From NCBI GenBank assembly GCA_964389675.1, contig CAYMEV010000001.1:1-64000 (forward strand): 64,000 nt of DNA, in the 5' to 3' direction. This document shows, piece by piece, positions 44,343 through 60,107 of this stretch. This stretch comes from an uncultured Candidatus Sumerlaeota bacterium. GTDB lineage: Bacteria > CAYMEV01. Position 1 is the stretch's first letter; each line of letters opens with the position of its first letter. Both the position numbers and the translations under genes were made by a program. The notes beneath the pieces were generated by a model, which was not told the origin of the DNA, did not search any database, and worked only from the letters and a program-made list of their open reading frames with translations.

Positions 44343-45431
44343 ATGGAAGATATAAAGATTCTCGCAATAAATCCTGGATCTACTTCTACAAAAATAGCTG
44401 TCTTTGAATACAAGGACAGAAAACACAATCTAATTCTTAAAAAGAATATTGATCATCCGAGCGAAGAGATACAAAAATACCACAAGATCATAGACCAGTA
44501 CCATTTTCGTGCAGAACTCATAAAGTCAGCCCTGAAGGAAAATGGTATAGATATAAACAGCCTTTCCTGTGTTGTCGGCCGGGGGGGATTGTTTAAACCG
44601 GTAAGAAGCGGTACATATCTTGTTAATCAGAAAATGATGGATGATATCAAAAGCCCTGATACACTTGAGCATGCATCCAACCTCGGATGCCTTATGGCCT
44701 ATGATATTGCTGGCAGTATCGGAAAAAAGGCATTCATAGTCGACCCTGTCGTTGTTGATGAACTTGAGGACATAGCACGCTATTCAGGCCTTAAGAATTA
44801 TCCTCGCACAAGTATATTCCATGCGCTGAACCAGAAGGCAATTGCACTGAAATGTGCCGAAGATCATGGCAAAGACTACAGGGAACTCAATATGATAGTT
44901 GTACATCTTGGCGGTGGTATCACAATCGGGGCACATAAAAAGGGGCTTGTGGTTGACGTCAACAATGGCCTGACAGGAGAAGGGCCATTCTCCCCTGAAA
45001 GGGCAGGCGGCATAGCAGTATTTGATATAATTGAACTCTGTTTTTCAGAAGGCATGACAAAACAGAAGGCAAAAAAGGCTGTCGTTGGCAAGGGAGGAAT
45101 AGTCAACTACCTGGGTACCAATGATATGAGAGAGGTTGAAAACAGGGTTAAAAACGGGGACAGATATGCTGAGGCTGTCTTTGATGCAATGTGCTATCAG
45201 GTGACAAAAGAGATCGGGGCTATGACAGCAGCCGTTTTTGCAGGAAAAGTCGACTTTATTGTTCTTACAGGCGGAATAGCATACGACAGGAGGCTTGTCT
45301 CATTCATAGAAGAAAGGACAAAATTCATTGCACCTCTTAAGGCCTATCCAGGGGAAGATGAGATGATGGCCCTTTATCTGGGAGGGTTGAGAGTAATAAA
45401 AGGGATTGATAAAGAGCTTTCATATGAATAG
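44343..45431 (+). CDS. buk: Butyrate (branched-chain carboxylate) kinase
   Basis: INPGSTSTK, GRGG, HASNLG, DPVVVDE, HALNQKA, GPFSPER. Confidence 0.95.
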   Translation: MEDIKILAINPGSTSTKIAVFEYKDRKHNLILKKNIDHPSEEIQKYHKIIDQYHFRAELIKSALKENGIDINSLSCVVGRGGLFKPVRSGTYLVNQKMMDDIKSPDTLEHASNLGCLMAYDIAGSIGKKAFIVDPVVVDELEDIARYSGLKNYPRTSIFHALNQKAIALKCAEDHGKDYRELNMIVVHLGGGITIGAHKKGLVVDVNNGLTGEGPFSPERAGGIAVFDIIELCFSEGMTKQKAKKAVVGKGGIVNYLGTNDMREVENRVKNGDRYAEAVFDAMCYQVTKEIGAMTAAVFAGKVDFIVLTGGIAYDRRLVSFIEERTKFIAPLKAYPGEDEMMALYLGGLRVIKGIDKELSYE

Positions 45432-46170
45432 ATCAGGGTATTATACAGCCAGGGAAGGGCTATGGGCTTTTTTAGGAAACTACGGGAGCGGTAAAACTGA
45501 GATTGCAGTAAACTATGCAATTTCAGGCGCTTTTAACGGGACAGCCCCGGTTTCAATAATAGACCTGGATATAATCAATCCATATTTCAGGTCCAGAGAA
45601 GTGGAGGATATACTCCAAAAATACGATATCAATGTAATAAGCCCCAAAGGAGAACTAAAATATGCTGACCTCCCCATAATTCTTCCCAATGTCAAGAGTT
45701 CCATAAAGGATTTCAAAGGACTGCTTGTCCTGGACATTGGCGGTGAAGATACAGGGGCAAATATAATCAGGCCCTTTAAGCATTTTCTTGAAAAGGATAA
45801 TTCAAACATATGCATGGTCATAAACATGAAAAGGCCATTTACAAGCGATGAGAAAAGCATTCTGGAAACAAAAAGGAGAATAGAGGAAAAAAGCGAGCTG
45901 AGAATAGACTTTTTTATTAATAACACAAACCTGATAGAACAGACGGATGCTGAAATCATTACTAAAAGCCATAAGACAATAAAGAAAGCGGCAGAAGCTG
46001 CTAAGACACAGTTCCTGTTTACTGCAGTAATGAAGGAACATGTCTCTGCAATTAATTCATCAATAGAGCCGAATGAGCTTTTTGTTCTTGAAAGATTCAT
46101 GCTTCCGCCCTGGTATTCAGATATTCAGAGATTCAAACCTCTGAAGGACCGGAGATCATTTATAATATAA
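45424..46170 (+). CDS. P-loop ATP-binding protein of unknown function
   Basis: GNYGSGKTE Walker A, DLDIINPYFRSRE, ADLP, LDIGG; start taken at the ATG overlapping the buk stop. Confidence 0.75.
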   Translation: MNRSGYYTAREGLWAFLGNYGSGKTEIAVNYAISGAFNGTAPVSIIDLDIINPYFRSREVEDILQKYDINVISPKGELKYADLPIILPNVKSSIKDFKGLLVLDIGGEDTGANIIRPFKHFLEKDNSNICMVINMKRPFTSDEKSILETKRRIEEKSELRIDFFINNTNLIEQTDAEIITKSHKTIKKAAEAAKTQFLFTAVMKEHVSAINSSIEPNELFVLERFMLPPWYSDIQRFKPLKDRRSFII

Positions 46171-47543: not shown

Positions 47544-48308
47544 ATGGAAAATATAGAAAATATGAAAATTGTATTCCAAAAGACAGAATCCTTATATGAA
47601 AGGCCTACACACTACTGCCCGGGTTGCACTCATGGAATAGCCCACAGGCTTGTTGCCGAGGCAATAGATGAGCTTGGCGTGGCGGACAGGGCAGTTGGGG
47701 TTGCACCTGTAGGATGCAGTGTTCTTATGTATAATTATCTTAATGTTGATTTTCAGGAAGCCGCCCATGGAAGGGCCCCTGCCCTGGCGACGGGGATCAA
47801 GAGGGTAAGGCCTGACACTATTGTATTCACATATCAGGGTGACGGCGACCTTGCATCCATCGGTACTGCAGAGATTATCCACGCTGCAAACAGGGGTGAA
47901 AAGATTACAGTTATATTCATAAATAATGCTATCTACGGCATGACTGGCGGGCAGATGGCACCCACCACGCTTGTCGGGCAAAAAACATCCACATCGCCCT
48001 ATGGAAGGGACCCGGAGCTGATAGGTTACCCCATAAGGATGGCAGAGCTTCTTGCAACACTCAAGGCTCCGTCATATATCGTACGTGAATCACTGCACAA
48101 GCCTGCAAATATAATCAAGGCAAAAAAGGCTGTAAAGAAGGCTTTTGAAAACCAGGTCAAGGGTAAGCCATTCTCTTTTGTTGAACTGTTATCCACATGC
48201 CCCACAAACTGGGGGATGACTCCAATCCAGGCGCTTGACTGGCTGGAACAAAACATGATACCCTATTACCCTCTTGGCGAATTTAAAAATATAGATGGAG
48301 GAAATTAG
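47544..48308 (+). CDS. 2-oxoacid:ferredoxin oxidoreductase beta subunit (TPP-binding)
   Basis: HYCPGCTHG, HGRA, YQGDGD, NNAIYGMTGGQ, CPTNW. Confidence 0.92.
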   Translation: MENIENMKIVFQKTESLYERPTHYCPGCTHGIAHRLVAEAIDELGVADRAVGVAPVGCSVLMYNYLNVDFQEAAHGRAPALATGIKRVRPDTIVFTYQGDGDLASIGTAEIIHAANRGEKITVIFINNAIYGMTGGQMAPTTLVGQKTSTSPYGRDPELIGYPIRMAELLATLKAPSYIVRESLHKPANIIKAKKAVKKAFENQVKGKPFSFVELLSTCPTNWGMTPIQALDWLEQNMIPYYPLGEFKNIDGGN

Positions 48309-48310
48309 AT

Positions 48311-48847
48311 ATGTACTCTGATGTAATAATGGCAGGATTCGGCGGACAGGGAGTTATGCTCATAGGCAAGATACTGGCCTACTGCGGTATGATTGAAGAC
48401 AAACATGTAGTATGGATACCTTCATATGGGCCTGAAATGCGCGGAGGCACTGCAAACTGCACAGTTGTGGTCTCTGATGAACCCATTGCTTCGCCAATAA
48501 TAGCAAACCCTCATGCAATCGTTGTCCTCAATAAACCTTCCCTCGATAAATTTGAACCGAAAGTCAAAAAAAACGGACTGATAATAATAAACGAGACGCT
48601 TATTGACAGAAAGACAAACAGAGATGATGTGAAATGCCTGTACACCCCAGGCAATAGAATAGCCATGGAACTTGGCAATGCCAAGGCTACAAACATGGTC
48701 ATGTTCGGCACTTATATCGGCGCTACAAAGATAATCAGGAAAGAGAGCGCCATAAAAGGAATTGAGGATACCCTGAAATCAAAGCCCAAATTGGTTCCGC
48801 TTAATATACAGGCCTTCGAAAAAGGATATGAAATAGGCTTGCAATAG
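48311..48847 (+). CDS. 2-oxoacid:ferredoxin oxidoreductase gamma subunit
   Basis: AGFGGQG, PSYGPEMRGGTA, NMVMFG. Confidence 0.92.
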   Translation: MYSDVIMAGFGGQGVMLIGKILAYCGMIEDKHVVWIPSYGPEMRGGTANCTVVVSDEPIASPIIANPHAIVVLNKPSLDKFEPKVKKNGLIIINETLIDRKTNRDDVKCLYTPGNRIAMELGNAKATNMVMFGTYIGATKIIRKESAIKGIEDTLKSKPKLVPLNIQAFEKGYEIGLQ

Positions 48848-48854
48848 CTGCTTC

Positions 48855-48883
48855 TGCCCCTGAAGAAAAAATCTTCAGGGGCA
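48855..48883 (+). terminator. 12-bp hairpin after the oxidoreductase operon (no U-tract)
   Basis: TGCCCCTGAAGA-aaaaa-TCTTCAGGGGCA. Confidence 0.5.
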
Positions 48884-48963
48884 TAGTATCATTATATTTA
48901 CAGCTATCAGATATAATATATAATATATTATCAGCACGGTTTTTATAGCAGGAGGAACTGGTT

Positions 48964-51900
48964 ATGAAAAAAGAGGATTTCAGAGATCTAAATCTTTTTA
49001 TGGACAAAGACCTGAATAATACAGCCTTCCTCAAAAAATCCGGGTTTGATGTAGAATATTTTAAGAAGGTCACAAATTCCCCAAATATTAAAAGCAAAAT
49101 AAAAAGCATATATCAAACCGGCATTTTCAGCTGTACCGAAGCCTTAAGGCTTTCAATCGCCATTTTTGAAGCCTTTTACACAAATAAGGGCAAGTCATGG
49201 ATCTTCAATACAGATGAAGAAAACCTTAAGAATATAATATATAATTTCAACCAGAGCCTTCTCTACCCTCATACCCTCATTGAATCAAATGCAGAGCTTG
49301 TAAATGACAATTATTTCCTGGGATTTTTTACCATTTTCGCAAGGATACTGAAAACATTCATAATTAATGCCAAGACCAGCCCCGAGAATAAATGGGAATA
49401 TAAATACCCGTACTATGGACTCATGACAGATGAGTATTCACAGTCCCGTTTCAAAAAGGAATATGATCAGTTTCTGGATGTATTCGACAAGCAGAATGTA
49501 TACGGGCTTATGAAAATGAGCCAGGAATGGAAAGGATACACAAGCCTCGATCATACGCTTGGTGTCTACAGCCTGTGCATGTTCATTGGCCTGCAGATGA
49601 AAAGGCTCGGCTTTCCCGTTGACCTTGCAATACTGTCAGGAGCCTCAATCGGCCATGATATAGGCAAGTACGGATGTGTTGGCGAAGAACTGAAGCAGAT
49701 AGCATATTATCATTATTTTTATACCAAAGAATGGTATGACAGGAATGGATTGTACAACCTCTCCCATTATGCTACAAACCACAGCACCTGGGACCTTGAA
49801 GAACTCAGGCTCCCAAATGAAACAATAATATTGATATATTCGGACTTCCGAGTAAAATCAAGAACATATCCCGACGGCTCGTCGCGCATGGCCATATACA
49901 GCAATAAAGAATCCTTCGATGTTATCAGAGATAAGCTTGATAACCTGGATGATAAAAAGCTGGACAGGTACAGAAGAGTGTACAGAAAACTTGAAGACCT
50001 GGAAAGAATGTTCATTACTCTCGGAATTAATACTGATGTTGAAAGCGGAATCAGCCTGGAGGACTATGGACAGAGGCACAGTGACTTCAATGCGATCTGT
50101 ATTGTTAACGGGAATGTAAACTCGGATTTTATAGGAATACTGCCTAATTCCCAGATACTGGATGCAGCAAAGACACTTGCAGTCGCACACAATATATTCG
50201 TCATGGATAAGATCAGGGATTCATTCTCTCTCAAAAGGCTTTTTGAAGATGCCAGGCAGGAAAAGACAAAGAACGATCTCAGGATCTATCTAAGCATTAT
50301 AGAAGCATATTCTGACTTTCTTACTCTTGAACAGAGAGAGCTTTGCATTGGCTTTCTCTTTGACCTTCTCAGCCACCCTGATGACGATATAAGGTATCAC
50401 AGCGCTGATACTATAGGCAAATTCCTCGCAGAGATGAGGGAAGCATACACCAGGTACCTCCCCCCCGGCAAAACGCACATGGTGATTGATAAATCTGACA
50501 AGTATCTCCTGAAGATATTTTCTCTGCTTGATTATGTTGAACCGTCAGACCCTGAGGGATATCTGACGGAAAAGAAGCTGTACAATGTCACAGTATCGCT
50601 TAGAAAGCTGCTTAAGACAGCAAAAGGTGAAAAGAAGGAAGAATTCGGCAAGCAGGTAATAAAAACCATCATTAAAAAGAGTGCAGGGGCAAAACCTCTT
50701 CAACTCCTGTATCTTACGGAGATAATATCTGATGCAAGCAGCAATATCAGCAATGAGAACCTGCTGGTGGCAATTCCGATGCTATTTGAGAACCTCTCGC
50801 ACAATGACAGAAGAATTAGGCTGATGACTCTCAGGGCTTTTCTGACATTAAGCAGAAGAGATCTCTGGAGGGACCTGGTCGATGAGCACAGAAGCAGATT
50901 ATGCGGTTCGATAAAAAGAATTCTTGAAATAGATGATAATCCCACTGAAACCTATTCATTATATATATTTCTCAATTCTCTTGATGAGGAAAGCAGGGAT
51001 AAGATCTGCAGTGAGATCAGCAAGGGCAACAGAGACAGAATAGGCCATATTCTGGAGAATATTGACATCAGGCCGATTTTCCTGAGAAATCTGAAGACCA
51101 GTACTCCATGGATTGAAAAGAAGATAAACTGCCAGATGCTTGTTGATATTGCACAGAAGCTTAAGCAAAAAGACCCCGAAAGCTCACTTATAATAGATAT
51201 TGCGATACACCTGGGCAATATCCTTAAAGTAAGCCAGTATGAAGGAACGAGGTTTCAGGCAGGCAGCTCCCTGCTTGAGCTGAGCAGGATGCTGAACCCT
51301 GCACAGCTTAACGAGATAAGCATAGAGCTTCTTAGAACCCTGGAGCAGGAATCCATGGGATTTACACATTATATACCAAGGGTCCTGGGGCAGATAGTAG
51401 CCAAACTGCCGATCGAAGAATTCCTGGAGATATACAATGACATCAAGGAAAAGATCAAGGTAGGGAGCCCTCCATTAAAGGAGCTTTACCTGAAAACGCT
51501 TTCCATAATCCTTTCCCATCTGGATAATGTACAGCACCAGCAGCACAGACTGGATATGAAAATTCTGGGGCTTTTTACAGGTTCTCTCTGTGATATGAAT
51601 CAATATACAAAACAGAAAGCACATTATATAATAGGGTCAAGGATCTTCGGGTCAAAATTTCTTCCGTCAGAAGAGAAAAAAAAGATACTCTGTGCTTCCC
51701 TGAAAAAGATTTTGTCTCTGATTTCAAACAAACCAAATGATTATGTGGACCTTTTCTATTCAGCAACACTGCTGAACAATATTTACATGTTTATATCAGC
51801 CTATGAGTTTGCCAATGGCAGCCTTGACATGCCTAAAGACAAGATTGTCGCCTTCTTCCCGGGAACTTTCGACCCATTCAGCCTGAGTCACCTTGAAATA

Positions 51901-53991
51901 GTCAAAACCTGCCAGAAGGAGGGTTTCGATATCTTTATACAGGTGGATGAGTTCTCATGGAGAAAGAGGACACTTCCTCCGGCAATCAGGAAGAATATAA
52001 TACGCCTCAGCACTTCTCATCTCTTAAACGCATTTATATACCCTGAGATACCGCCTGTAAATCTCGCAAATGAAAATGACCTTCATAGATTATTGAAAGC
52101 TTTTCCCAATAGAGAATTGTATCTGGTTGCCGGAGCTGATGTAATTGTCAATGCATCAGCGTACAAATCCGAGAATAAAAGCCTGATAAAGGAACTCAAC
52201 CATTTTATCGTATTCAGGAAAGACCCTCAGGGGAGGCATATACACAATAATCCTGATTTCAAGAGGATTATCGATAAAATAAAGGGTAATATTATTCTTA
52301 GAGAGCTTGAAGATGTTTTCAATTATATAAACTCAACAAAAATAAGAGACCTTATAGATACGGACGAATCAATAGACCACCTTGTGGATGCAAGGTCAGC
52401 TTCATATATAACTGACAATAACCTTTATATCAGACAGCCTGAAGAAAAACAGAATATCGAACTCTGGGATTTCAAGATAGAGATCAGTAGCATAAGGGAA
52501 ACGCCTGATATTTTTAGCTCACTTCCCTCAAGGCTTTTATCATGTTTTCTATCCAGGAAAAAAAGGTATAATATTTCCTTTGAAAGCCTTTTAAGCGACC
52601 TTAAAAAGAAAAATGCTCATCTGTTCATTATAAAAAGGGCAACACATAACAGGGAATTTATTGGGGTAATCCTGTTTTATAAAATAAGGGAAGATGGGAT
52701 TTTCGGTATTATCAAAGATCCTGCTGTTTCTAAATTTCAAAGGAACAATACCTTCGGCAAAGTTGCCTATATTGATCCAGTATTTATAGAAAATGACAGC
52801 CATATATTCGTCAAAAGCAGGTTTCATCTTTATTTAATCAAAGAAGGCTATCTCTTTGCCCTACAGGAAACAGATCTAAACCTTCTGAAGGAAAAGAACA
52901 GTCTTGCCAGAATTGAAAAAACCGAACACAACTACAATAAAATAATGGGATATTATCAGATCCCTCATGAATTCAAAAGAAAGGAATACAGTTTAAAGCT
53001 CGGCATCATAGACCTTCGAAAACCTCTGATCTTTATAAACAACCTGGAAGATGTACTAAAGGTCCCCTTCAGTCAGCATAGAAAGATCAGGACAAGGATC
53101 CGTAAAAACAGGGAGGCTATACTTAAAATACTGTCAAAAATAAATAAGGAAAGCGCAATAATCTCGCTGAGTTATAAGGACATTGTATTCAATATTATGG
53201 AAAGGATATCCCTCTTAAACGGACAAAACCCCCAGGACCAGTTCCTGTGCATATTATTCGGTAATATATTAGGCAAATATATTGTACCGGGAACAATCAG
53301 CAAAGCGCTTCACGCAGAAAGAGTAGTCAGTTCTGAAGGGAAGCTGATAGGCTTTACACATTCCAAACACTATTACTCCATACCCATACAGTTAAAGACA
53401 ATCAAAGCATTTGGTAAAAGGACCATTCTTTCAGATATACTTGTGCACTCAGCCAGGAGGATCCTTAATATACAGAAAGCAGCAATGAATGTGGGGGTTA
53501 AGATCGAGCGTGTTGTTTCAGGAATTGTTTCCGGACTGGCTAAAGAAATAATGGATGCAAATAATATTGCATCAGAATCAGTATTTTATATCCCCAGGCT
53601 GCACAGCTGGTATGAAGAGCATATGATATATCCGTTTGCAGGAGGGGACAGCATTATTGATTACATGGAACTCCAGGAGCCATTAAACAGGTCAATGCTC
53701 TATATACTGCCGTTCTGCCCCTTTGAACAGCAGCATAATATCAGTGTGAATGACAGGATTGTCTTCTCCCAGTATGCCCTTGAAAATGCCTATAACCTTT
53801 TCAGGGATATAGAGGAGATCTACCTTGAATACAAGAAGAAGAACCTTATCCTTGAAAATATACAGGAAGTACTGGAGAATCCCAAAATTCCCGTATATAA
53901 CCCGTTGCATACCCCCAATAACCAGGAGATGCTCTCTGATCTGTTATTGAAAGATATAGACACACTCAAAAGATTCCATATCATTGCATAA
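48964..53991 (+). CDS. Giant multidomain protein: HD domain, HEAT-like repeats, NadD-like nucleotidyltransferase, possible GNAT, degenerate PRTase-like C-terminus
   Basis: DHTLGV/GHDIGK/YSDFR; FPGTFDPFSLSH, LVAGAD, NSTKIR; ILSDILVHSA; AGGAGG RBS. Confidence 0.75.
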   Translation: MKKEDFRDLNLFMDKDLNNTAFLKKSGFDVEYFKKVTNSPNIKSKIKSIYQTGIFSCTEALRLSIAIFEAFYTNKGKSWIFNTDEENLKNIIYNFNQSLLYPHTLIESNAELVNDNYFLGFFTIFARILKTFIINAKTSPENKWEYKYPYYGLMTDEYSQSRFKKEYDQFLDVFDKQNVYGLMKMSQEWKGYTSLDHTLGVYSLCMFIGLQMKRLGFPVDLAILSGASIGHDIGKYGCVGEELKQIAYYHYFYTKEWYDRNGLYNLSHYATNHSTWDLEELRLPNETIILIYSDFRVKSRTYPDGSSRMAIYSNKESFDVIRDKLDNLDDKKLDRYRRVYRKLEDLERMFITLGINTDVESGISLEDYGQRHSDFNAICIVNGNVNSDFIGILPNSQILDAAKTLAVAHNIFVMDKIRDSFSLKRLFEDARQEKTKNDLRIYLSIIEAYSDFLTLEQRELCIGFLFDLLSHPDDDIRYHSADTIGKFLAEMREAYTRYLPPGKTHMVIDKSDKYLLKIFSLLDYVEPSDPEGYLTEKKLYNVTVSLRKLLKTAKGEKKEEFGKQVIKTIIKKSAGAKPLQLLYLTEIISDASSNISNENLLVAIPMLFENLSHNDRRIRLMTLRAFLTLSRRDLWRDLVDEHRSRLCGSIKRILEIDDNPTETYSLYIFLNSLDEESRDKICSEISKGNRDRIGHILENIDIRPIFLRNLKTSTPWIEKKINCQMLVDIAQKLKQKDPESSLIIDIAIHLGNILKVSQYEGTRFQAGSSLLELSRMLNPAQLNEISIELLRTLEQESMGFTHYIPRVLGQIVAKLPIEEFLEIYNDIKEKIKVGSPPLKELYLKTLSIILSHLDNVQHQQHRLDMKILGLFTGSLCDMNQYTKQKAHYIIGSRIFGSKFLPSEEKKKILCASLKKILSLISNKPNDYVDLFYSATLLNNIYMFISAYEFANGSLDMPKDKIVAFFPGTFDPFSLSHLEIVKTCQKEGFDIFIQVDEFSWRKRTLPPAIRKNIIRLSTSHLLNAFIYPEIPPVNLANENDLHRLLKAFPNRELYLVAGADVIVNASAYKSENKSLIKELNHFIVFRKDPQGRHIHNNPDFKRIIDKIKGNIILRELEDVFNYINSTKIRDLIDTDESIDHLVDARSASYITDNNLYIRQPEEKQNIELWDFKIEISSIRETPDIFSSLPSRLLSCFLSRKKRYNISFESLLSDLKKKNAHLFIIKRATHNREFIGVILFYKIREDGIFGIIKDPAVSKFQRNNTFGKVAYIDPVFIENDSHIFVKSRFHLYLIKEGYLFALQETDLNLLKEKNSLARIEKTEHNYNKIMGYYQIPHEFKRKEYSLKLGIIDLRKPLIFINNLEDVLKVPFSQHRKIRTRIRKNREAILKILSKINKESAIISLSYKDIVFNIMERISLLNGQNPQDQFLCILFGNILGKYIVPGTISKALHAERVVSSEGKLIGFTHSKHYYSIPIQLKTIKAFGKRTILSDILVHSARRILNIQKAAMNVGVKIERVVSGIVSGLAKEIMDANNIASESVFYIPRLHSWYEEHMIYPFAGGDSIIDYMELQEPLNRSMLYILPFCPFEQQHNISVNDRIVFSQYALENAYNLFRDIEEIYLEYKKKNLILENIQEVLENPKIPVYNPLHTPNNQEMLSDLLLKDIDTLKRFHIIA

Positions 53992-54011
53992 ATATATAAG
54001 GAGCATTTAAT

Positions 54012-55094
54012 TTGGATATTAATAAAATTGAATATAGTTTAGAATCATATGGCGAGATACTGCCATGTCCGGATTTAAGAACAGATCCTCTGGATACACT
54101 GATAAGGACAGAAGAATATATCGCAGACAGCAGCATATATATTAACAAAAAAAGGGAGAAAGAGATATTCAGAGTATTCAACCATCAAAATAAAAAGAAG
54201 AAGATACTGGTCTACGGGCTCGGAAATGTTGGAGGAACAGTGCTCATATCATTAAGATTGCTTCTAAACAGTGAGTTTGCTGAACATATTGCAATCTATG
54301 ACAAAAATCCAAAACTTGCTGAAAGATACGAACTTGAGGTAAATCAGATCCACCCGCCTAAACCAGAAAAGCAGGTGGAGGTAAGGATACTTGAAAATTT
54401 TGATAAGATCCCTGAATATGATATAATCGTTTTTGCAGCCGCTGCACACATTCCTCCCCTGGAATCAGCAAGGATCAATGTCCGGGATATACAGTTTCCC
54501 GGGAACAGAAGGATACTTGACAGCCTTATAGAACCTCTTAAGAACACTGGCTTTATGGGTAATATCATAATTGTAAGTGACCCTGTTGATATATTATGCA
54601 CATACCTGTTCAATAAGCTAAACATCCTGTCTTCACAGATAACAGGAATGGGGCTTGGTGTCATGGCTGCAAGAGCTAATTATATACTTGAAAAACAGGG
54701 GTATCATGAATTTTATGAAAAGGGCCAGATCTTCGGGCCCCATAATGAAGGTGTCATTGCAATACCCGATAAGGATAGATCAACTAAGGAAGAGATTATT
54801 AACCTCAGTTATAATATAGAAAACCTGAATTTCATTGTCAGGGAAAAGGGATACTATCCGTATATAGCACCAGCGATCAGCTCTGTTGCATATAATATAC
54901 TCTATGCACTTCTTGGACATGATATACTCTCCTGCGTCTATATAGACGGCATATACTGGGGATTTAGATCAAGGTATCTCAATGGCCTCTGGTATCCGGT
55001 AATACAGACAACAAATATAAAGCATATGGATCTTATCAGGGACAGATTTCTTGATTTTAAGAAAAGGACATCCCATGTCCTGAATCAGATATAA
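54012..55094 (+). CDS. Lactate/malate dehydrogenase-like protein (divergent active site)
   Basis: GLGNVG Rossmann motif, IYD, IVSDPVD, GLGVMAAR, FGPH; TTG start after AAGGAG. Confidence 0.75.
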   Translation: MDINKIEYSLESYGEILPCPDLRTDPLDTLIRTEEYIADSSIYINKKREKEIFRVFNHQNKKKKILVYGLGNVGGTVLISLRLLLNSEFAEHIAIYDKNPKLAERYELEVNQIHPPKPEKQVEVRILENFDKIPEYDIIVFAAAAHIPPLESARINVRDIQFPGNRRILDSLIEPLKNTGFMGNIIIVSDPVDILCTYLFNKLNILSSQITGMGLGVMAARANYILEKQGYHEFYEKGQIFGPHNEGVIAIPDKDRSTKEEIINLSYNIENLNFIVREKGYYPYIAPAISSVAYNILYALLGHDILSCVYIDGIYWGFRSRYLNGLWYPVIQTTNIKHMDLIRDRFLDFKKRTSHVLNQI

Positions 55095-55213
55095 AACGCA
55101 GAATTTTTTATTATACCATTCTATTCTTTTCGGTTTTTCTGCTTTAGAGAAAGTGCCTTTCTGCCATGCAGTCTTCTTAATCCAATTAAATGCAGTTTCA
55201 GCTGAAATTGGCT

Positions 55214-55789
55214 TTAAACTTCAGACCATGTCCCATAAAATTCACAATAAGGGTCCCCAAGGGTAACACACTTTCTTTCCGTCATTTCAACAGTTTTCAA
55301 ATGGCAGGCTTCTATTATGCCCTCGCAATACCCCATCATGGAAAAGCAGAAGGCCCTGTGGGGAGTCTTGAAATCATAAAGTTTTATACATCCTGAATCA
55401 GGCTCTTCGGAGGATACTTCCAGCCATCCGTGGTCATGTATCTGCTTCCACATTCTTGGTGCACGCATCAGGGTAAACAGAGGATTCCCAAGCCGCAAAA
55501 AAAGCGCAAGAGCTCTCGGGACTCCCTTTAGTGCCTGATAATGCCCTATATTTCTGCATATCTGATAATTGCCCTTTCCCAGCACTCTATCCGATGCTTT
55601 CAGAAAATCTATATAAGCCTTTTCAGAATACCAGGAGCCTGAAAGGATACTCCTGTCGATGATCTCCTTTGATTCAGGCTCCAGAAGATCAATCGCCTTC
55701 GTCAGGGCATCTTCGCCGTATACATCCCTGATATGCTCTTTTGCAAGCCTTACAGATAAACCTCTGATATTTGCCTTGATATTTGTTAT
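55214..55789 (-). CDS. V4R-like / myxobacterial DUF2378-like protein, probable ATA start
   Basis: Frame open from 55813; ILSGSWYS motif; C-terminal C...GY...C-x5-C; AAGGAG 7 nt before ATA. Confidence 0.65.
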   Translation of the reverse strand: MTNIKANIRGLSVRLAKEHIRDVYGEDALTKAIDLLEPESKEIIDRSILSGSWYSEKAYIDFLKASDRVLGKGNYQICRNIGHYQALKGVPRALALFLRLGNPLFTLMRAPRMWKQIHDHGWLEVSSEEPDSGCIKLYDFKTPHRAFCFSMMGYCEGIIEACHLKTVEMTERKCVTLGDPYCEFYGTWSEV

Positions 55790-55958: not shown

Positions 55959-58900
55959 TCAGTTAACAAAAGCATCTTTTTTAATTCTGTCTATCATCAG
56001 TTTATATTCATAATTCCTGGTTTTTTTATAAAGCTCACCAAGGCTTTTTAATGCTTCTGTCCTGCAATTTTCTGAGCCATCAAGCATATAGATCTCAAAA
56101 TTCACAAGTGCATTCTCCTGCAGGCATCCTTCATATTTCTTTTTGAGTTTTTTTAAGATATCTAATGCAATTTTCTTATCTTTATTTGCATGAATTCTGG
56201 CATGTAATATTTTTGAATCAAAAAGGAAGCTCTTATTTCCCAATTCTTCAGCTATTTTCTCAGCCTCAGTTATAAAGTCCAGGGCTGTCTCATAACCCCC
56301 GGTTTCAAATGAGATCCTTGCCTTTTCAATAAATATGAAACAGGAATCATACCTGACATTTACCCTTTTTGAAAGCTTCAGTGATCTATCAATAAAGCCC
56401 GATGCACTTTCCAGCTCATTCATCATCCTGTAAACAGATGCAATATTGCAGTAAGCAAGGCTTTCAGCCTTATAATCGCCTAATTCCTTTGCAATTGACG
56501 CAGTGGAATTATATAAAGCAATTGACCTTTTATAATTTCCTTTCAGCCTGTATAACCAGGCTTTATATGAACTAAGTTCGCATAATGCCGGCTTATCACC
56601 AATTTCCTGCGCTATTTTTCTGCTTTCTTCAATATATTTAAGGCTGTTTAAAAAATCACCTTTTTCAATGAGGGTTTTGCCCATATTTGCTGTAGAAAGT
56701 ATGATCCCCTTTTTATTTGCAATCTCTTTTGCTGTTTTCAGCTGTATTTCAAAGCTTGCTAATGCTTCGTCAAATTTCCCCATATCACTGTATAATACTC
56801 CTATGTTCCCTGTAATAAGGCACAGGCCCAATTTATCTCCAATTTCAATAAAAAGGGCTTTAGCCTTCTCATAACGCTCTAATGCTTCTTCCATATAACC
56901 CTGGACATGGTAGAGTATTCCAAGGTTACCGTTTACCGTGCTTAAGTTACCCTTATCACCAATCTCTTTTGATATTTCTTCTTTCATGAGATAATACTTC
57001 AGGGCCTTATCCATATTGCCTGTATTTGAATATACACGCCCTATACTGCCCAGCGCGCTGGCTGAATTCCTTTTATTCCCGCTCTTTTCAGCAGTTTCAT
57101 AGGAAGCCCTGTAATACTCCATTGCCTTCTCATAGTTTCCCTGCTCAACATAAGCATTGCCCATATTCCCTGAAGCTGAGCTCATTCCAGTCATATCCCC
57201 GGTTTCTTCAGCAGAATGAAGCTGATATAAGAAGTACTGCCTGGCCTCATCATACTTATTCTGGCGGAAATAGAGCTTTCCCATATTCCCGTATGATATT
57301 GCAAGTTCATTTTTATTCCCAAATTCTACAGCTGTTTCAATGGTTTCTCTGCATATATCATAAGCCTCGTCCATATCTCCTTTCATATGGAGTAAGCATA
57401 TAAGCTGGTTTTGAAACTTTAACTGATATAGGATATTATTCATGCTTTTTGCTTTTTTTATAAGGCCCCTTAATTCATCTATGCACTGATCTGTCCTGCC
57501 TATTAACTCGAGTATAGTTATCCTGTGAAAATTATATTCAAAAAGCTTTTCGCTTTCATCGCACATTTGCAGTAATACATCAAAGCATTCCAGTGCTTTC
57601 TGGTTCTCAAACCTTTTTGTGAAATAGAAGGCTGACTTATTATAATACTCAATTGCTTTGCTTTTTTCTTCTGCATTATAGTAATGATATGCAATCTCAT
57701 AATATCTGTTTTCAGATCCCTTATATGCCTCTTCAATATTCCTGGCAGCATATAAATGACACTTTCTAAGCGTTGATTTTAGCTGCATTTCATAAGCTGT
57801 TTTCTGCAATAGCGCATGTTTGAATATATATTTAAGCAGGGAGAGCTTCATCCATATGTTTTTATTCTCTAACTGCTCAAGCTTTTCCTGTTCATGCACA
57901 GTCTGCGGAAGCAAACCAAGCCCCTTTATAATCTTCCGGAGTATGGCTATCTCAAACTCCCTTCCCAGTACTGATGCAACTTTCACTATCTGCTTTAGAT
58001 CTGTTACAAGCCTGTCAATCCTGGCAATGATTATTGAATATATGCTCTCAGGAATTGATATATCCTTCAGGGATTTACCCATCAGCCTGTTTTCCTTAAT
58101 ATACTGAATAATCTGCTCAAGATAAAAAGGGTTATTTTCTGCTTTTGAAATAATCAGCTTTTTTAAGGGTTCTTCTGCTTTGATATGTTCATTTATCAAT
58201 GATTCAGCTTCCCTGTCATTAAGCCTGTCAATTACTATTTCGCGCTGGACTATCTCTTTATCAACCTTCAGGACAGGCTTTCCGCCATCATCATCGAAAC
58301 GGCTTGTTCCTGCAATCAGGAAAGGATAATCATTCCCTGTCCTGCATAACAGCCTGAATACTTCCTGAGTACCTTCATCCAGGTACTGTATATCTTCTAT
58401 GCATATTATCAATGGCTTCAACAGGCTTAATGCCTTTAAGAGTTCATTATAGGCTGTTACGGTATTTTCATACCTCCCCCTGGAATCAAGGGAAGAATAA
58501 TATGGATCATTAATATCCAGGCCCAGCTGTGCTGAAATTACTGATTTCAGCCTGATAAGTTCACCCAGAACATTATCAGCCCTGGCATCCTTAAGCTTTT
58601 TCAGGCTTTTCAGCATTCTTTCATAGACTGAATTGAACTGCTCTGGATCTGCCTTTCCTGATTGCCTGAAATAGTTTAAGGCAAAATATTTAAGAGGGTT
58701 GAAGCCTGTTTTAAGCAGATTATCTGATTGCATGAATGCTGCAAACGCGCTTTCTTTCCTGACAAATTCGTCAAGCAGACGGCTTTTGCCAATTCCAGCT
58801 TCTCCGTATATGATTATGATACCTCCGAATTTTCCGTTATATACAGGTTTTGCACTTTCTTTTAAAAGGCTTAATTCATCCTGCCTGCCTATCATTTCAT

Positions 58901-60107
58901 TCCTGTAGAAGGCCGGACCCTGATCATGGCTTTGCTCCAGGAGCCTGTAAACCGGAATTGGCCTGCTTTTCCCCTTAAAGGACAGCCTGCCGATATATAC
59001 GCTTTTATAATCATTCCTTATAGATTTCGCAATGGACCGGGAAAACCATATCTCCCCCGCAGGAGCCTTTGCCATAAACCTTGCCGCCTGATTCACAGTA
59101 TCACTCAATGCTGTATATTCGCACCTTTCATCTGTTCCTGTAAACCCTGTAAATGCCATTCCTGAAGTCATCCCCGCTTTTATTCTATTTCCAGCAAATA
59201 ACTTTACAGCTTTAATAAAATCAACTGACCTTCTTATATTACCCTCATAGTATACCGGTGCACCAAAGATGATAAGCATGACTCCTCCCTTGTCCCCGAA
59301 CTCAACACGGTTAAAATAGCCCCCGAAATCATCGCAGTATCCTGTTATATTTTTTATAAGCTCATCAAGCTCATCATGCATTAATGAAGAATCAAAATAT
59401 ATGAACAGAGTGACTACTTTTCTGAATTCACCTGTCTGTCCACCCTGAAATAATTGTTCAGGAAAAAAAAGGGATGCAATCTCTTCAGGTATAAAATCAA
59501 TCCTGCGGCGAACCTGCGGCTTGATCCTTCTGCATGATATAAGCCTGTATCTTTTGTCTCTGATCAGATCTGCTTTAACTTCCTCTTCTCCAACCAGAGT
59601 GTCATCTATGATAATTTCTGATCCCTCGCAGAATTTCTGGTTTTCAATGCTGTTACTTATTGTCTCACCCCTGAAATAATAGACCCTGTGCCTGTCTCCA
59701 AGTATACCCCATTCCACGTTCCCTGATGATAGGCTCAACTTGAAAGAAAGCTCATATGTCCCGAACCTGGTATTCTGGATTTCTATCTGCCCCAGGATCT
59801 CCCTGATCCTTAAGGAACAGGATAAGGCATTAAGGATCCCTGTATCCTTAAAGATCACTGTAAATGCATCCCCTGCAAAACCGGACACAAATCCCCCGAA
59901 CAGGTGAATTGTGCTTATTAGAGGGTCAAAGACATTATTAAGTATCTTTGCAAGTATCTCAGCTCCCTCGGTCCCTTTCTCCATCAGCTTTTCTGTCATT
60001 GGAGTAAACCCGGAAATGTCAAGATGCATTATAACTGCATAGAAACTGCCTTCACACCTTCTGGAAGAAACCATTTCAGAAATAAAACCGGGCAGCAGAT
60101 TCTTCAT
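55959..60107 (-). CDS. Class III adenylate cyclase (two domains) plus STAND ATPase plus TPR repeats
   Basis: LDISGFT, FAGDA, GDKG, YTALSDTVNQAAR; GEAGIGKS Walker A; ICIED Walker B; many TPRs. Confidence 0.88.
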   Translation of the reverse strand: MKNLLPGFISEMVSSRRCEGSFYAVIMHLDISGFTPMTEKLMEKGTEGAEILAKILNNVFDPLISTIHLFGGFVSGFAGDAFTVIFKDTGILNALSCSLRIREILGQIEIQNTRFGTYELSFKLSLSSGNVEWGILGDRHRVYYFRGETISNSIENQKFCEGSEIIIDDTLVGEEEVKADLIRDKRYRLISCRRIKPQVRRRIDFIPEEIASLFFPEQLFQGGQTGEFRKVVTLFIYFDSSLMHDELDELIKNITGYCDDFGGYFNRVEFGDKGGVMLIIFGAPVYYEGNIRRSVDFIKAVKLFAGNRIKAGMTSGMAFTGFTGTDERCEYTALSDTVNQAARFMAKAPAGEIWFSRSIAKSIRNDYKSVYIGRLSFKGKSRPIPVYRLLEQSHDQGPAFYRNEMIGRQDELSLLKESAKPVYNGKFGGIIIIYGEAGIGKSRLLDEFVRKESAFAAFMQSDNLLKTGFNPLKYFALNYFRQSGKADPEQFNSVYERMLKSLKKLKDARADNVLGELIRLKSVISAQLGLDINDPYYSSLDSRGRYENTVTAYNELLKALSLLKPLIICIEDIQYLDEGTQEVFRLLCRTGNDYPFLIAGTSRFDDDGGKPVLKVDKEIVQREIVIDRLNDREAESLINEHIKAEEPLKKLIISKAENNPFYLEQIIQYIKENRLMGKSLKDISIPESIYSIIIARIDRLVTDLKQIVKVASVLGREFEIAILRKIIKGLGLLPQTVHEQEKLEQLENKNIWMKLSLLKYIFKHALLQKTAYEMQLKSTLRKCHLYAARNIEEAYKGSENRYYEIAYHYYNAEEKSKAIEYYNKSAFYFTKRFENQKALECFDVLLQMCDESEKLFEYNFHRITILELIGRTDQCIDELRGLIKKAKSMNNILYQLKFQNQLICLLHMKGDMDEAYDICRETIETAVEFGNKNELAISYGNMGKLYFRQNKYDEARQYFLYQLHSAEETGDMTGMSSASGNMGNAYVEQGNYEKAMEYYRASYETAEKSGNKRNSASALGSIGRVYSNTGNMDKALKYYLMKEEISKEIGDKGNLSTVNGNLGILYHVQGYMEEALERYEKAKALFIEIGDKLGLCLITGNIGVLYSDMGKFDEALASFEIQLKTAKEIANKKGIILSTANMGKTLIEKGDFLNSLKYIEESRKIAQEIGDKPALCELSSYKAWLYRLKGNYKRSIALYNSTASIAKELGDYKAESLAYCNIASVYRMMNELESASGFIDRSLKLSKRVNVRYDSCFIFIEKARISFETGGYETALDFITEAEKIAEELGNKSFLFDSKILHARIHANKDKKIALDILKKLKKKYEGCLQENALVNFEIYMLDGSENCRTEALKSLGELYKKTRNYEYKLMIDRIKKDAFVN

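Follow-up and report, generated by a model that had tools for sequence, protein, structure and literature searches.

A conserved five-module protein of strict anaerobes with HD and NadD-type nucleotidyltransferase domains, and its reduced form in an uncultured Candidatus Sumerlaeota bacterium

GlnD and GlnE pair a transfer with its removal, and CitC joins a GNAT domain with a HIGH-type transferase. A closer parallel to the protein considered here is the NadD-YqeK pair or fusion of Firmicutes and mycoplasmas (JCVISYN3A_0380), which likewise places a NadD-type domain and an HD domain on one chain or in one operon, and whose six HD metal ligands align with those of our protein. In that system, the HD part hydrolyzes mis-made dinucleotides and 8-oxo-GTP and is cited as belonging to an Ap4A (diadenosine tetraphosphate) hydrolase family, and in the mycoplasma fusion it cleaves the nicotinic acid dinucleotides of cytosine and uracil (NaCD and NaUD) at least as well as that of adenine (NaAD), a proofreading function being assigned to the system (PMC9426524). 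Here we describe P0001, a 1675-residue protein encoded on the forward strand at 48964..53991 of the window, that is, of the whole 64,000-nt stretch of DNA from an uncultured Candidatus Sumerlaeota bacterium that was analyzed. P0001 is an intact protein in which a helical region with a binuclear-type HD domain is followed by a HEAT solenoid, a NadD/NMNAT-type nucleotidyltransferase (NT) domain, a GNAT fold and a phosphoribosyltransferase (PRTase)-like domain. It is a divergent member of a conserved ~1,620-residue family of strict anaerobes, whose fixed partners are a lactate dehydrogenase (LDH)-like protein encoded directly downstream and, in most lineages, an Isf-like flavoprotein.

The P0001 gene starts with an ATG 8 nt 3' of an AGGAGG sequence, its frame is open over all 1675 codons, its homologues are full length, and it is present in one copy in the 3.57-Mb, 93.8%-complete source genome (G000). 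The protein was folded in two parts from alignments of 77-79 homologues apiece, and both were modeled confidently, with a predicted local distance difference test (pLDDT) score of 88.4 and a predicted template modeling (pTM) score of 0.88 for the N-terminal half, and 88.6 and 0.89 for the C-terminal half (residues 945-1675). The secondary structure of the model places an all-helical region at residues 1-140 (48964..49383), which is poorly conserved, with 2 columns conserved at ≥90%, and this leads into the HD phosphohydrolase domain (residues ~141-372, 49384..50079) with the six ligands H197, H231-D232, H250, H273, and D294. Structure comparison of the N-terminal half recovers a HEAT/ARM-type alpha-solenoid of paired helices over residues 411-954 (50194..51825), with conserved polar residues such as H749 and N752. 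The NT domain (residues 960-1157, 51841..52434) carries the motifs GTFDPFSLSH and INSTKIR, the GNAT-fold domain spans residues 1169-1353 (52468..53022), and the type-I PRTase-like domain with its C-terminal helices occupies residues 1356-1675 (53029..53988). The model of the C-terminal half was compared by VIA-align with 48,161 chains, and a Foldseek match to NadD (E 4.4e-8) bears out the Rossmann-like NadD fold of the NT domain. No Pfam or NCBIfam model spans the whole protein. The initial annotation had read this open reading frame (ORF) as an HD, HEAT, NadD-type, GNAT-like and PRTase-like protein and had suggested modeling its domains; that reading stands, with PRTase-like as the best label for the last domain, and every motif it quoted is where it was said to be: DHTLG (H197, ~49552), GHDIGK (residues 230-235, 49651), NHS (272-274), YSDFR (292-296), FPGTFDPFSLSH (965-976, 51856), NSTKIR (1123-1128, 52330), and ILSDILVHSA (1488-1497, 53425). 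At the level of sequence, 57 distant full-length homologues together with the invariant HD ligands confirm that the observation lies far above chance.

These homologues come from a full-length search of 7,993 scored candidates, in which 60 other proteins matched at E ≤ 0.001. Three are close relatives (67-75% identity), and the remaining 57, of 1416-1646 aa, share 25-32% identity with P0001 at E values of 5e-152 to 6.5e-222; in public records they go by no names other than "cytidyltransferase" or "nicotinate-(nicotinamide) nucleotide adenylyltransferase". When one genome of each GTDB species was scanned by pattern, at least 385 stretches proved to encode a relative, and the best 80 of these loci, on which the locus counts below are based, come from Clostridia of many families, Atribacterota, Negativicutes, and a Thermoanaerobaculaceae (acidobacterial) metagenome-assembled genome (MAG). 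Cultured carriers include Clostridium fessum, Sedimentibacter saalensis, Anaerovorax odorimutans, and Fusibacter sp. When the class Clostridia was sampled evenly, the family was found in 26 of 399 scored genomes, or roughly one species in fifteen (two further genomes could not be scored), nearly always within an open frame of ~1,600 aa; one clostridial member (G321:C1:141460-142437) is a pseudogene with five stops, and another clostridial genome (G146) has two copies, on C33 and C9. The GTDB phylum and class of the source organism comprise two species genomes of one genus, and both carry the gene. Source DNA was found in marine-sediment and sediment metagenome runs, and a metagenome scan for close relatives gave a single locus that belongs to the species of the sister genome and hence is not independent. 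No new architecture with a split or otherwise fused C-terminal domain was seen among 83 shorter matches, which are mostly fragments on short contigs or entries marked "partial". A literature search covering neither supplements nor subscription journals found no paper on the family.

The HD domain retains its metal site throughout the family. H197, H231, H250, H273, and D294 do not vary among the 80 aligned sequences, at least 90% of which also have D232, and the extended H-HD-H-H-D motif of the HD superfamily is present in P0001, a six-ligand set which, from the HD literature, we take to be of the binuclear type. Profile matches are uneven, since at E ≤ 0.01 Pfam HD recognizes 45 of 80 members (best 1.2e-7) and not the window's copy, and among NCBIfam models the HD part of DVU_1551 matches 74 of 80, TIGR00295 43, and HDIG 21. 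Against PDB profiles the region has weak matches to 1xx7 (E 0.011) and to the HD-GYP protein 4mcw (E 0.069), and the structure lists of the N-terminal half are occupied by solenoid matches, with no HD fold row among them. When compared by hhalign with four YqeK proteins from other carrier genomes, the domain aligned with a probability of 35% (E 4e-4) and with all six metal ligands in register, and TIGR00488, the YqeK model, matches none of the family's HD regions. We considered the HD domain as a replacement for YqeK and rejected this idea: TIGR00488 likewise finds no YqeK in the 93.8%-complete G000, but a true YqeK is present in each of five further carriers that were tested. In G000 (contig 7, L081), the ORFs that come right after nadD encode 128 and 297 aa, as compared with YqeK ORFs of ~190-196 aa elsewhere.

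In the NT domain, the first motif has the form (S/T)x(S/G/A)H in all 80 sequences, with an invariant final His, and reads GTFDPFSLSH in the window. The initial annotation had noted that Ser replaces the first His of the motif. In the HMMER alignment of the family profile, solved enzymes also have Thr or Ser here, as in phosphopantetheine adenylyltransferase (PPAT; 4nah, PGSFDPITYGH), Plasmodium falciparum NaMNAT (5llt, GGSFDPITYAH), human NMNAT1 (1gzu, GSFNPITNMH), and VPA0413 (3h05, SAFNPPSLGH), and because S/T is found in all members and in active solved enzymes we regard it as a normal variant. The family profile also aligns the NMNAT-specific C-terminal stretch ISSTxIR...YI...LY to human NMNAT1. 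It contains the second ATP motif (SxxxxR), which is ISSTxIR in the family and INSTKIR in the window, the first Ser being changed to Asn and the Arg being kept. The conserved blocks DEFSWSKK and GSDVxxNASAY of the consensus fall at the acceptor-binding site of NadD and therefore suggest that the predicted acceptor is different from that of NadD or is modified. The NadD model TIGR00482 scores 39.9-43.2 bits on the NT domain and 35-52 bits on four homologues, where the cut-off is 112.45, and a separate true NadD is encoded on contig 7 of G000 (178.4 bits). P0001 is thus an accessory protein, neither the cell's NadD nor a NadD ortholog, and the housekeeping NadD that the initial annotation had named as a refuting outcome is contradicted.

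The two modules that follow are of very different character. A GNAT fold is recovered for residues 1169-1353, as had been tentatively suggested, but without a conserved acetyl-CoA loop. This loop has the motif Q/RxxGxG/A in GNAT enzymes, and the 77-sequence consensus has no conserved Gly-rich CoA loop between strand 4 and helix 3. The domain is the least conserved of the modules compared, with 8 columns conserved at ≥90% versus 50-59 in the others, and the Pfam Acetyltransf_1 match is poor (E 0.14, 12.9 bits against a cut-off of 20.7). Because of this low conservation and the lack of a visible CoA loop we do not file it as an acetyltransferase. The C-terminal domain, by contrast, is highly conserved in the family. 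The PRPP (phosphoribosyl pyrophosphate) loop of PRTases consists of a hydrophobic strand, two acidic residues, and TGxT. The family's PRPP-type loop is VILVDDLLHKGYR (also given as RPVILVDDLLHKGYR), and comparison of the window's ILSDILVHSARR with the family's ILVDDLLHKGYR shows that the family keeps the acidic pair but not TGxT. The degenerate PRPP-like motif noted at the outset is confirmed, in that the window's ILSDILVHSA has lost the second Asp and the Gly of the family's ILVDDLLHKG. Six of the seven PRTases of G000 align their PRPP loop to the family loop, one of them through IVLIDDVLFTGRTIRA, with modest P-values (8e-4 to 1.3e-2) and low hhalign probabilities (3-24%); the remaining one, of 497 aa, aligned at another place. 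At E ≤ 0.01, Pfam Pribosyltran recognizes 7 of 78 members (best 5.1e-4) and not the window's copy, PDB profiles of PRTases are reached at E 0.28-0.44, and the structure comparison of the C-terminal half contains a single PRTase row. Atlas neighbors of the domain include a cluster with PF00156 on 14% of its members, and two JGI names on fragments read "PRPP-binding protein". Taking all of these matches together, PRTase-like is the best label for the C-terminal domain, and any catalysis by it is putative.

The partners of the family were identified by tblastn (E ≤ 1e-5), in which the window's neighbors served as queries against the 80 loci with as much as 10 kb of flank at either end. An LDH-like gene was found in 72 loci and lies directly downstream on the same strand in 70 of these 72. 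In six of the eight misses the sequence stops no more than 561 nt from the large gene, and the remaining two (L012 and L073) have an LDH-like/Isf-like gene pair elsewhere in their genomes. The initial annotation had linked the gene to butyrate and 2-oxoacid fermentation genes as well as to the LDH-like gene, and it is the latter link that holds, as buk, the window's 254-aa ORF, fdx, vorA, and vorB were found in 0 of the 80 loci and vorG in 2. When 1,128 flanking ORFs were clustered without bias, only two families proved to accompany the large gene consistently, namely the LDH-like protein and a ~350-aa protein encoded 3' of it. As the latter matches FMN_red (E 2.1e-18) and has four invariant Cys (C-x2-C-x4-C-x8-C), we assign it as an Isf-like 4Fe-4S iron-sulfur flavoprotein; its gene was found by tblastn in 65 of the 80 loci. 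A profile search gave no PDB sequence relative of the Isf-like protein at E ≤ 0.01, and the protein (for example L071:16156-17205) has a conserved N-terminal extension of ~160 aa with no Pfam match, the consensus of which includes GS.GG...ELYTK and PLVEAT. The next commonest neighbors are an ABC-type ATPase (13 of 80 loci) and glutamate dehydrogenase (11 of 80). A gene of the fumarylacetoacetate-hydrolase family lies directly upstream of the large gene in 6 loci, and these glutamate dehydrogenase and fumarylacetoacetate-hydrolase neighbors (L044, L019, and others) are lineage-specific and belong to amino-acid catabolism.

In the window, the LDH/MDH-superfamily partner (360 aa) is encoded on the same strand at 54012..55094, with a TTG start behind AAGGAG, 20 nt past the P0001 stop. 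It matches Ldh_1_N (37.6 bits, cut-off 27) and a PDB profile (E 1.6e-9), and aligns with true L-LDH with a probability of 97.5% over 280 columns (hhalign). It retains both substrate Arg and the catalytic His, along with the Rossmann glycines and the Asp that follows strand 2. On the L-LDH equivalog model TIGR01771 it scores 49 bits, below the cut-off of 303.55. Judged by these features, the partner is a genuine but remote LDH/MDH relative.

P0001 itself represents a reduced form of the family system. Conservation at ≥90% among the 79 other members defines the columns scored here. P0001 retains 47 of 54 of them in the HD module, 44 of 50 in the HEAT module, 48 of 59 in the NT module, and 31 of 53 in the PRTase-like module, in which, among other losses, Ile has replaced the second Asp of the loop and Ala its Gly. 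An Isf-like gene was not found in G000 or in the sister genome with either a one-protein query or a 53-sequence profile. Because the loop residues are lost and the flavoprotein gene is missing, we describe the window's copy as a reduced version of the system with two genes, and its PRTase-like domain probably has no more than a structural or ligand-sensing role. The 67 members that have an Isf-like gene keep on average 0.95 of the PRTase-like columns (minimum 0.84), and the lowest values among full-length sequences are those of L021 (0.42), whose genome is also without an Isf-like match, and of the window (0.57). A strict coupling of Isf-like loss with PRTase-like decay was considered and holds in part only, as it is contradicted by L025 and L029, whose genomes (of unknown completeness) give no Isf-like match and which still keep 0.96 and 0.93 of the PRTase-like columns. 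Because of these two exceptions, the link between loss and decay is only suggestive. Moreover, no lineages in the set are more distant than those of the two decayed cases.

The initial annotation had inferred a bifunctional enzyme that either adds and removes a nucleotide mark or makes and breaks a nucleotide signal, and we share the idea of a protein that would form and cleave a nucleotide linkage. Based on these data, we tentatively favor a mechanism, one that may well prove wrong, in which the family consists of small-molecule enzymes that make and break a dinucleotide by the logic of NadD-YqeK rather than of protein modifiers. Specifically, we propose that the NadD-type domain would use ATP to adenylylate a phosphorylated acceptor, giving a NAD-like dinucleotide, and that the HD domain of the same chain would hydrolyze this product or mis-made analogues of it. 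The HEAT solenoid would tether the modules or their partners. The LDH-like partner would bind the product or its precursor or process it by redox chemistry, and the Isf-like flavoprotein, with the dehydrogenase, may tailor or use the product. In typical members, PRPP and a base may be joined by the PRTase-like domain to provide the mononucleotide. An extended version of this scheme, which we consider unlikely as a whole, makes the large protein, the LDH-like protein, and the Isf-like protein a self-contained pathway that builds, redox-tailors, and destroys a novel adenine dinucleotide cofactor or signal of strict anaerobes, including common gut Clostridia: the PRTase-like and then the NadD-like domain would build the dinucleotide and the HD domain would destroy it, and the window's lineage would have lost the phosphoribosyl step and the flavoprotein together. 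It should be noted that several observations weigh against the make-and-break proposal. The NT domain scores far below the NCBIfam cut-off for NadD, and the acceptor pocket is unlike that of NadD, with EFSWSKK and GSDVxxNASAY in place of the NadD motifs. INSTKIR deviates in the window at a Ser that is kept by all 79 other members. The similarity of the HD domain to YqeK is weak (the 35% probability and absent TIGR00488 match given above), and the LDH-like partner has a Met at the place of LDH Asp168. The GNAT domain is without an assigned role, and a HEAT solenoid of ~545 aa is unusual in a purely metabolic enzyme and suits protein binding.

Some of the same observations can be read in other ways. 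The NT and HD domains could form a switch for signaling or redox homeostasis that makes and breaks an alarmone-like dinucleotide (of the Ap4A type or a NAD derivative), with the GNAT-fold and PRTase-like domains sensing PRPP, (p)ppGpp (guanosine tetra- or pentaphosphate), or acyl-CoA and the LDH-like protein sensing NAD(H). We regard such a switch as improbable. PyrR and PurR contain PRTase-like sensor domains, and a sensor role would suit the GNAT fold with its 8 well-conserved columns and lack of a conserved CoA loop. It would suit, too, a PRTase-like loop that has K-G-Y-R where catalytic PRTases have T-G-x-T, that tolerates D-to-N, T, or I changes in several lineages, and to which one G000 PRTase aligns IVLIDDVLFTGRTIRA; moreover, Ap4A is hydrolyzed by YqeK-type HD enzymes (PMC9426524). 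Outside the two decayed lineages, however, the PRTase-like domain is conserved like a catalytic domain (the mean of 0.95 over 67 members), and clustering of the flanking ORFs shows no signaling output domain or regulator conserved nearby. The long solenoid with its conserved polar residues such as H749 and N752 could serve to hold a target protein that the NT domain adenylylates and from which the HD domain removes the mark, a pairing that resembles GlnD. The target might be the LDH-like partner or the Vor/Buk enzymes, the gene following vorABG in this genus; we consider such a writer-eraser, which the initial annotation had put forward, decidedly unlikely. That P0001 is a housekeeping NadD or CoaD with decorative extra domains is scarcely credible. 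The public names of the homologues and weak NCBIfam matches to NadD and CoaD point that way, but the NadD of contig 7 far outscores the NT domain, as described above, and only 26 of the 399 sampled Clostridia genomes carry the family. Our working proposal is the make-and-break dinucleotide enzyme. Were it to make a new dinucleotide, or to act as a new layer of NAD quality control, it would add a piece to anaerobic cofactor metabolism. 

The locus in the window has some features of its own. Directly after the vorG stop lies a strong terminator-like hairpin with an A/U-rich tail (48849..48888, forward strand; -24.9 kcal/mol, z -6.1, with 0 of 200 shuffles folding as well), which a strict terminator scan did not call because its T-run is broken. 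It is followed by a promoter-like site, TTTACA-16-TATAAT (48897..48924, forward strand), 40 nt 5' of the start codon, which with 11 of 12 matches shares the top score in 48300-55700; as a match to the consensus alone, it says nothing on function. We infer from this layout that the P0001 and LDH-like genes form a predicted two-gene unit apart from vor. The sister species has the order buk, 254-aa ORF, fdx, vorABG, large gene, and LDH-like gene, and since the vor adjacency is seen in the sister species and its metagenome locus and in 0-2 of the 80 loci elsewhere, it is a feature of the genus only. Between the two species of the genus, the large protein is 75% and the LDH-like protein 59% identical, compared with 88-94% for VorA, VorB, and VorG. 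The spacer between the large and LDH-like genes is ~636 nt in the sister (L100, G006:C37) versus 20 nt in the window. The 254-aa ORF (45406-46170, forward strand) lies between a butyrate kinase gene (TIGR02707, E 1.4e-149) and ferredoxin/vorABG, where a phosphotransbutyrylase might be expected; its product matches no Pfam or NCBIfam model and shares 67% identity with its counterpart in the sister. Convergent with the large gene/LDH-like pair are genes on the reverse strand for a 123-aa V4R-domain protein (55214-55585) and for a 1382-aa protein (55959-60107) that combines a nucleotide-cyclase domain with TPR repeats and a STAND-type ATPase (AAA_16).

The essence of our findings is a strongly conserved protein of ~1,600 residues in Clostridia, Atribacterota, Negativicutes, an acidobacterial MAG, and this rare sediment phylum. 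New here are the finding, in a rare phylum, of a divergent form without the flavoprotein, the rejection of a link to vor/buk, and the interpretation of the S/T-x-x-H motif. The gene should not be counted as NadD in reconstructions of NAD pathways. When placed beside the known systems, the family differs from NadD-YqeK in that the HD domain of P0001 is N-terminal and is separated from the NT domain by ~590 residues, across the HEAT solenoid, and in that three further modules are present. P0001 has no TIGR00488 match, falls below the NadD cut-offs, and has fixed partners in the LDH-like and Isf-like proteins, and carriers keep the standard enzymes beside it, G000 its own NadD and five of five other carriers tested their YqeK. 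Identity to NadD/NMNAT enzymes (Mycobacterium tuberculosis NadD, 4rpi; human NMNAT1, 1kku) is ~18-22%, and the acceptor-site motifs differ. The DVU_1551 NTP transferase (NCBIfam NF045665) provides, at positions ~183-260 of its 359, the best NCBIfam match for the HD domain in 74 of 80 members, although it covers a short stretch (best E 2.4e-9) and falls short of E 0.01 in the window's copy. To judge by the name of the model, DVU_1551 may likewise join an HD region and a nucleotidyltransferase in a single chain; our literature search found no paper on that family. Compared with type-I PRTases and the regulators related to them (OPRT, HGPRT, PyrR, PurR), the PRTase-like domain has KGYR in place of the TGxT phosphate loop and an added helical C-terminal extension of 130 aa, and the window's copy in addition loses the second Asp and the Gly. 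Unlike GlnD and GlnE, the NT fold is NadD-type and not pol-beta, and in contrast to CitC, the domain order is reversed and there is no Pfam citrate-lyase-ligase match at E ≤ 1. We regard the P0001 family as a variant on the NadD-plus-HD theme.

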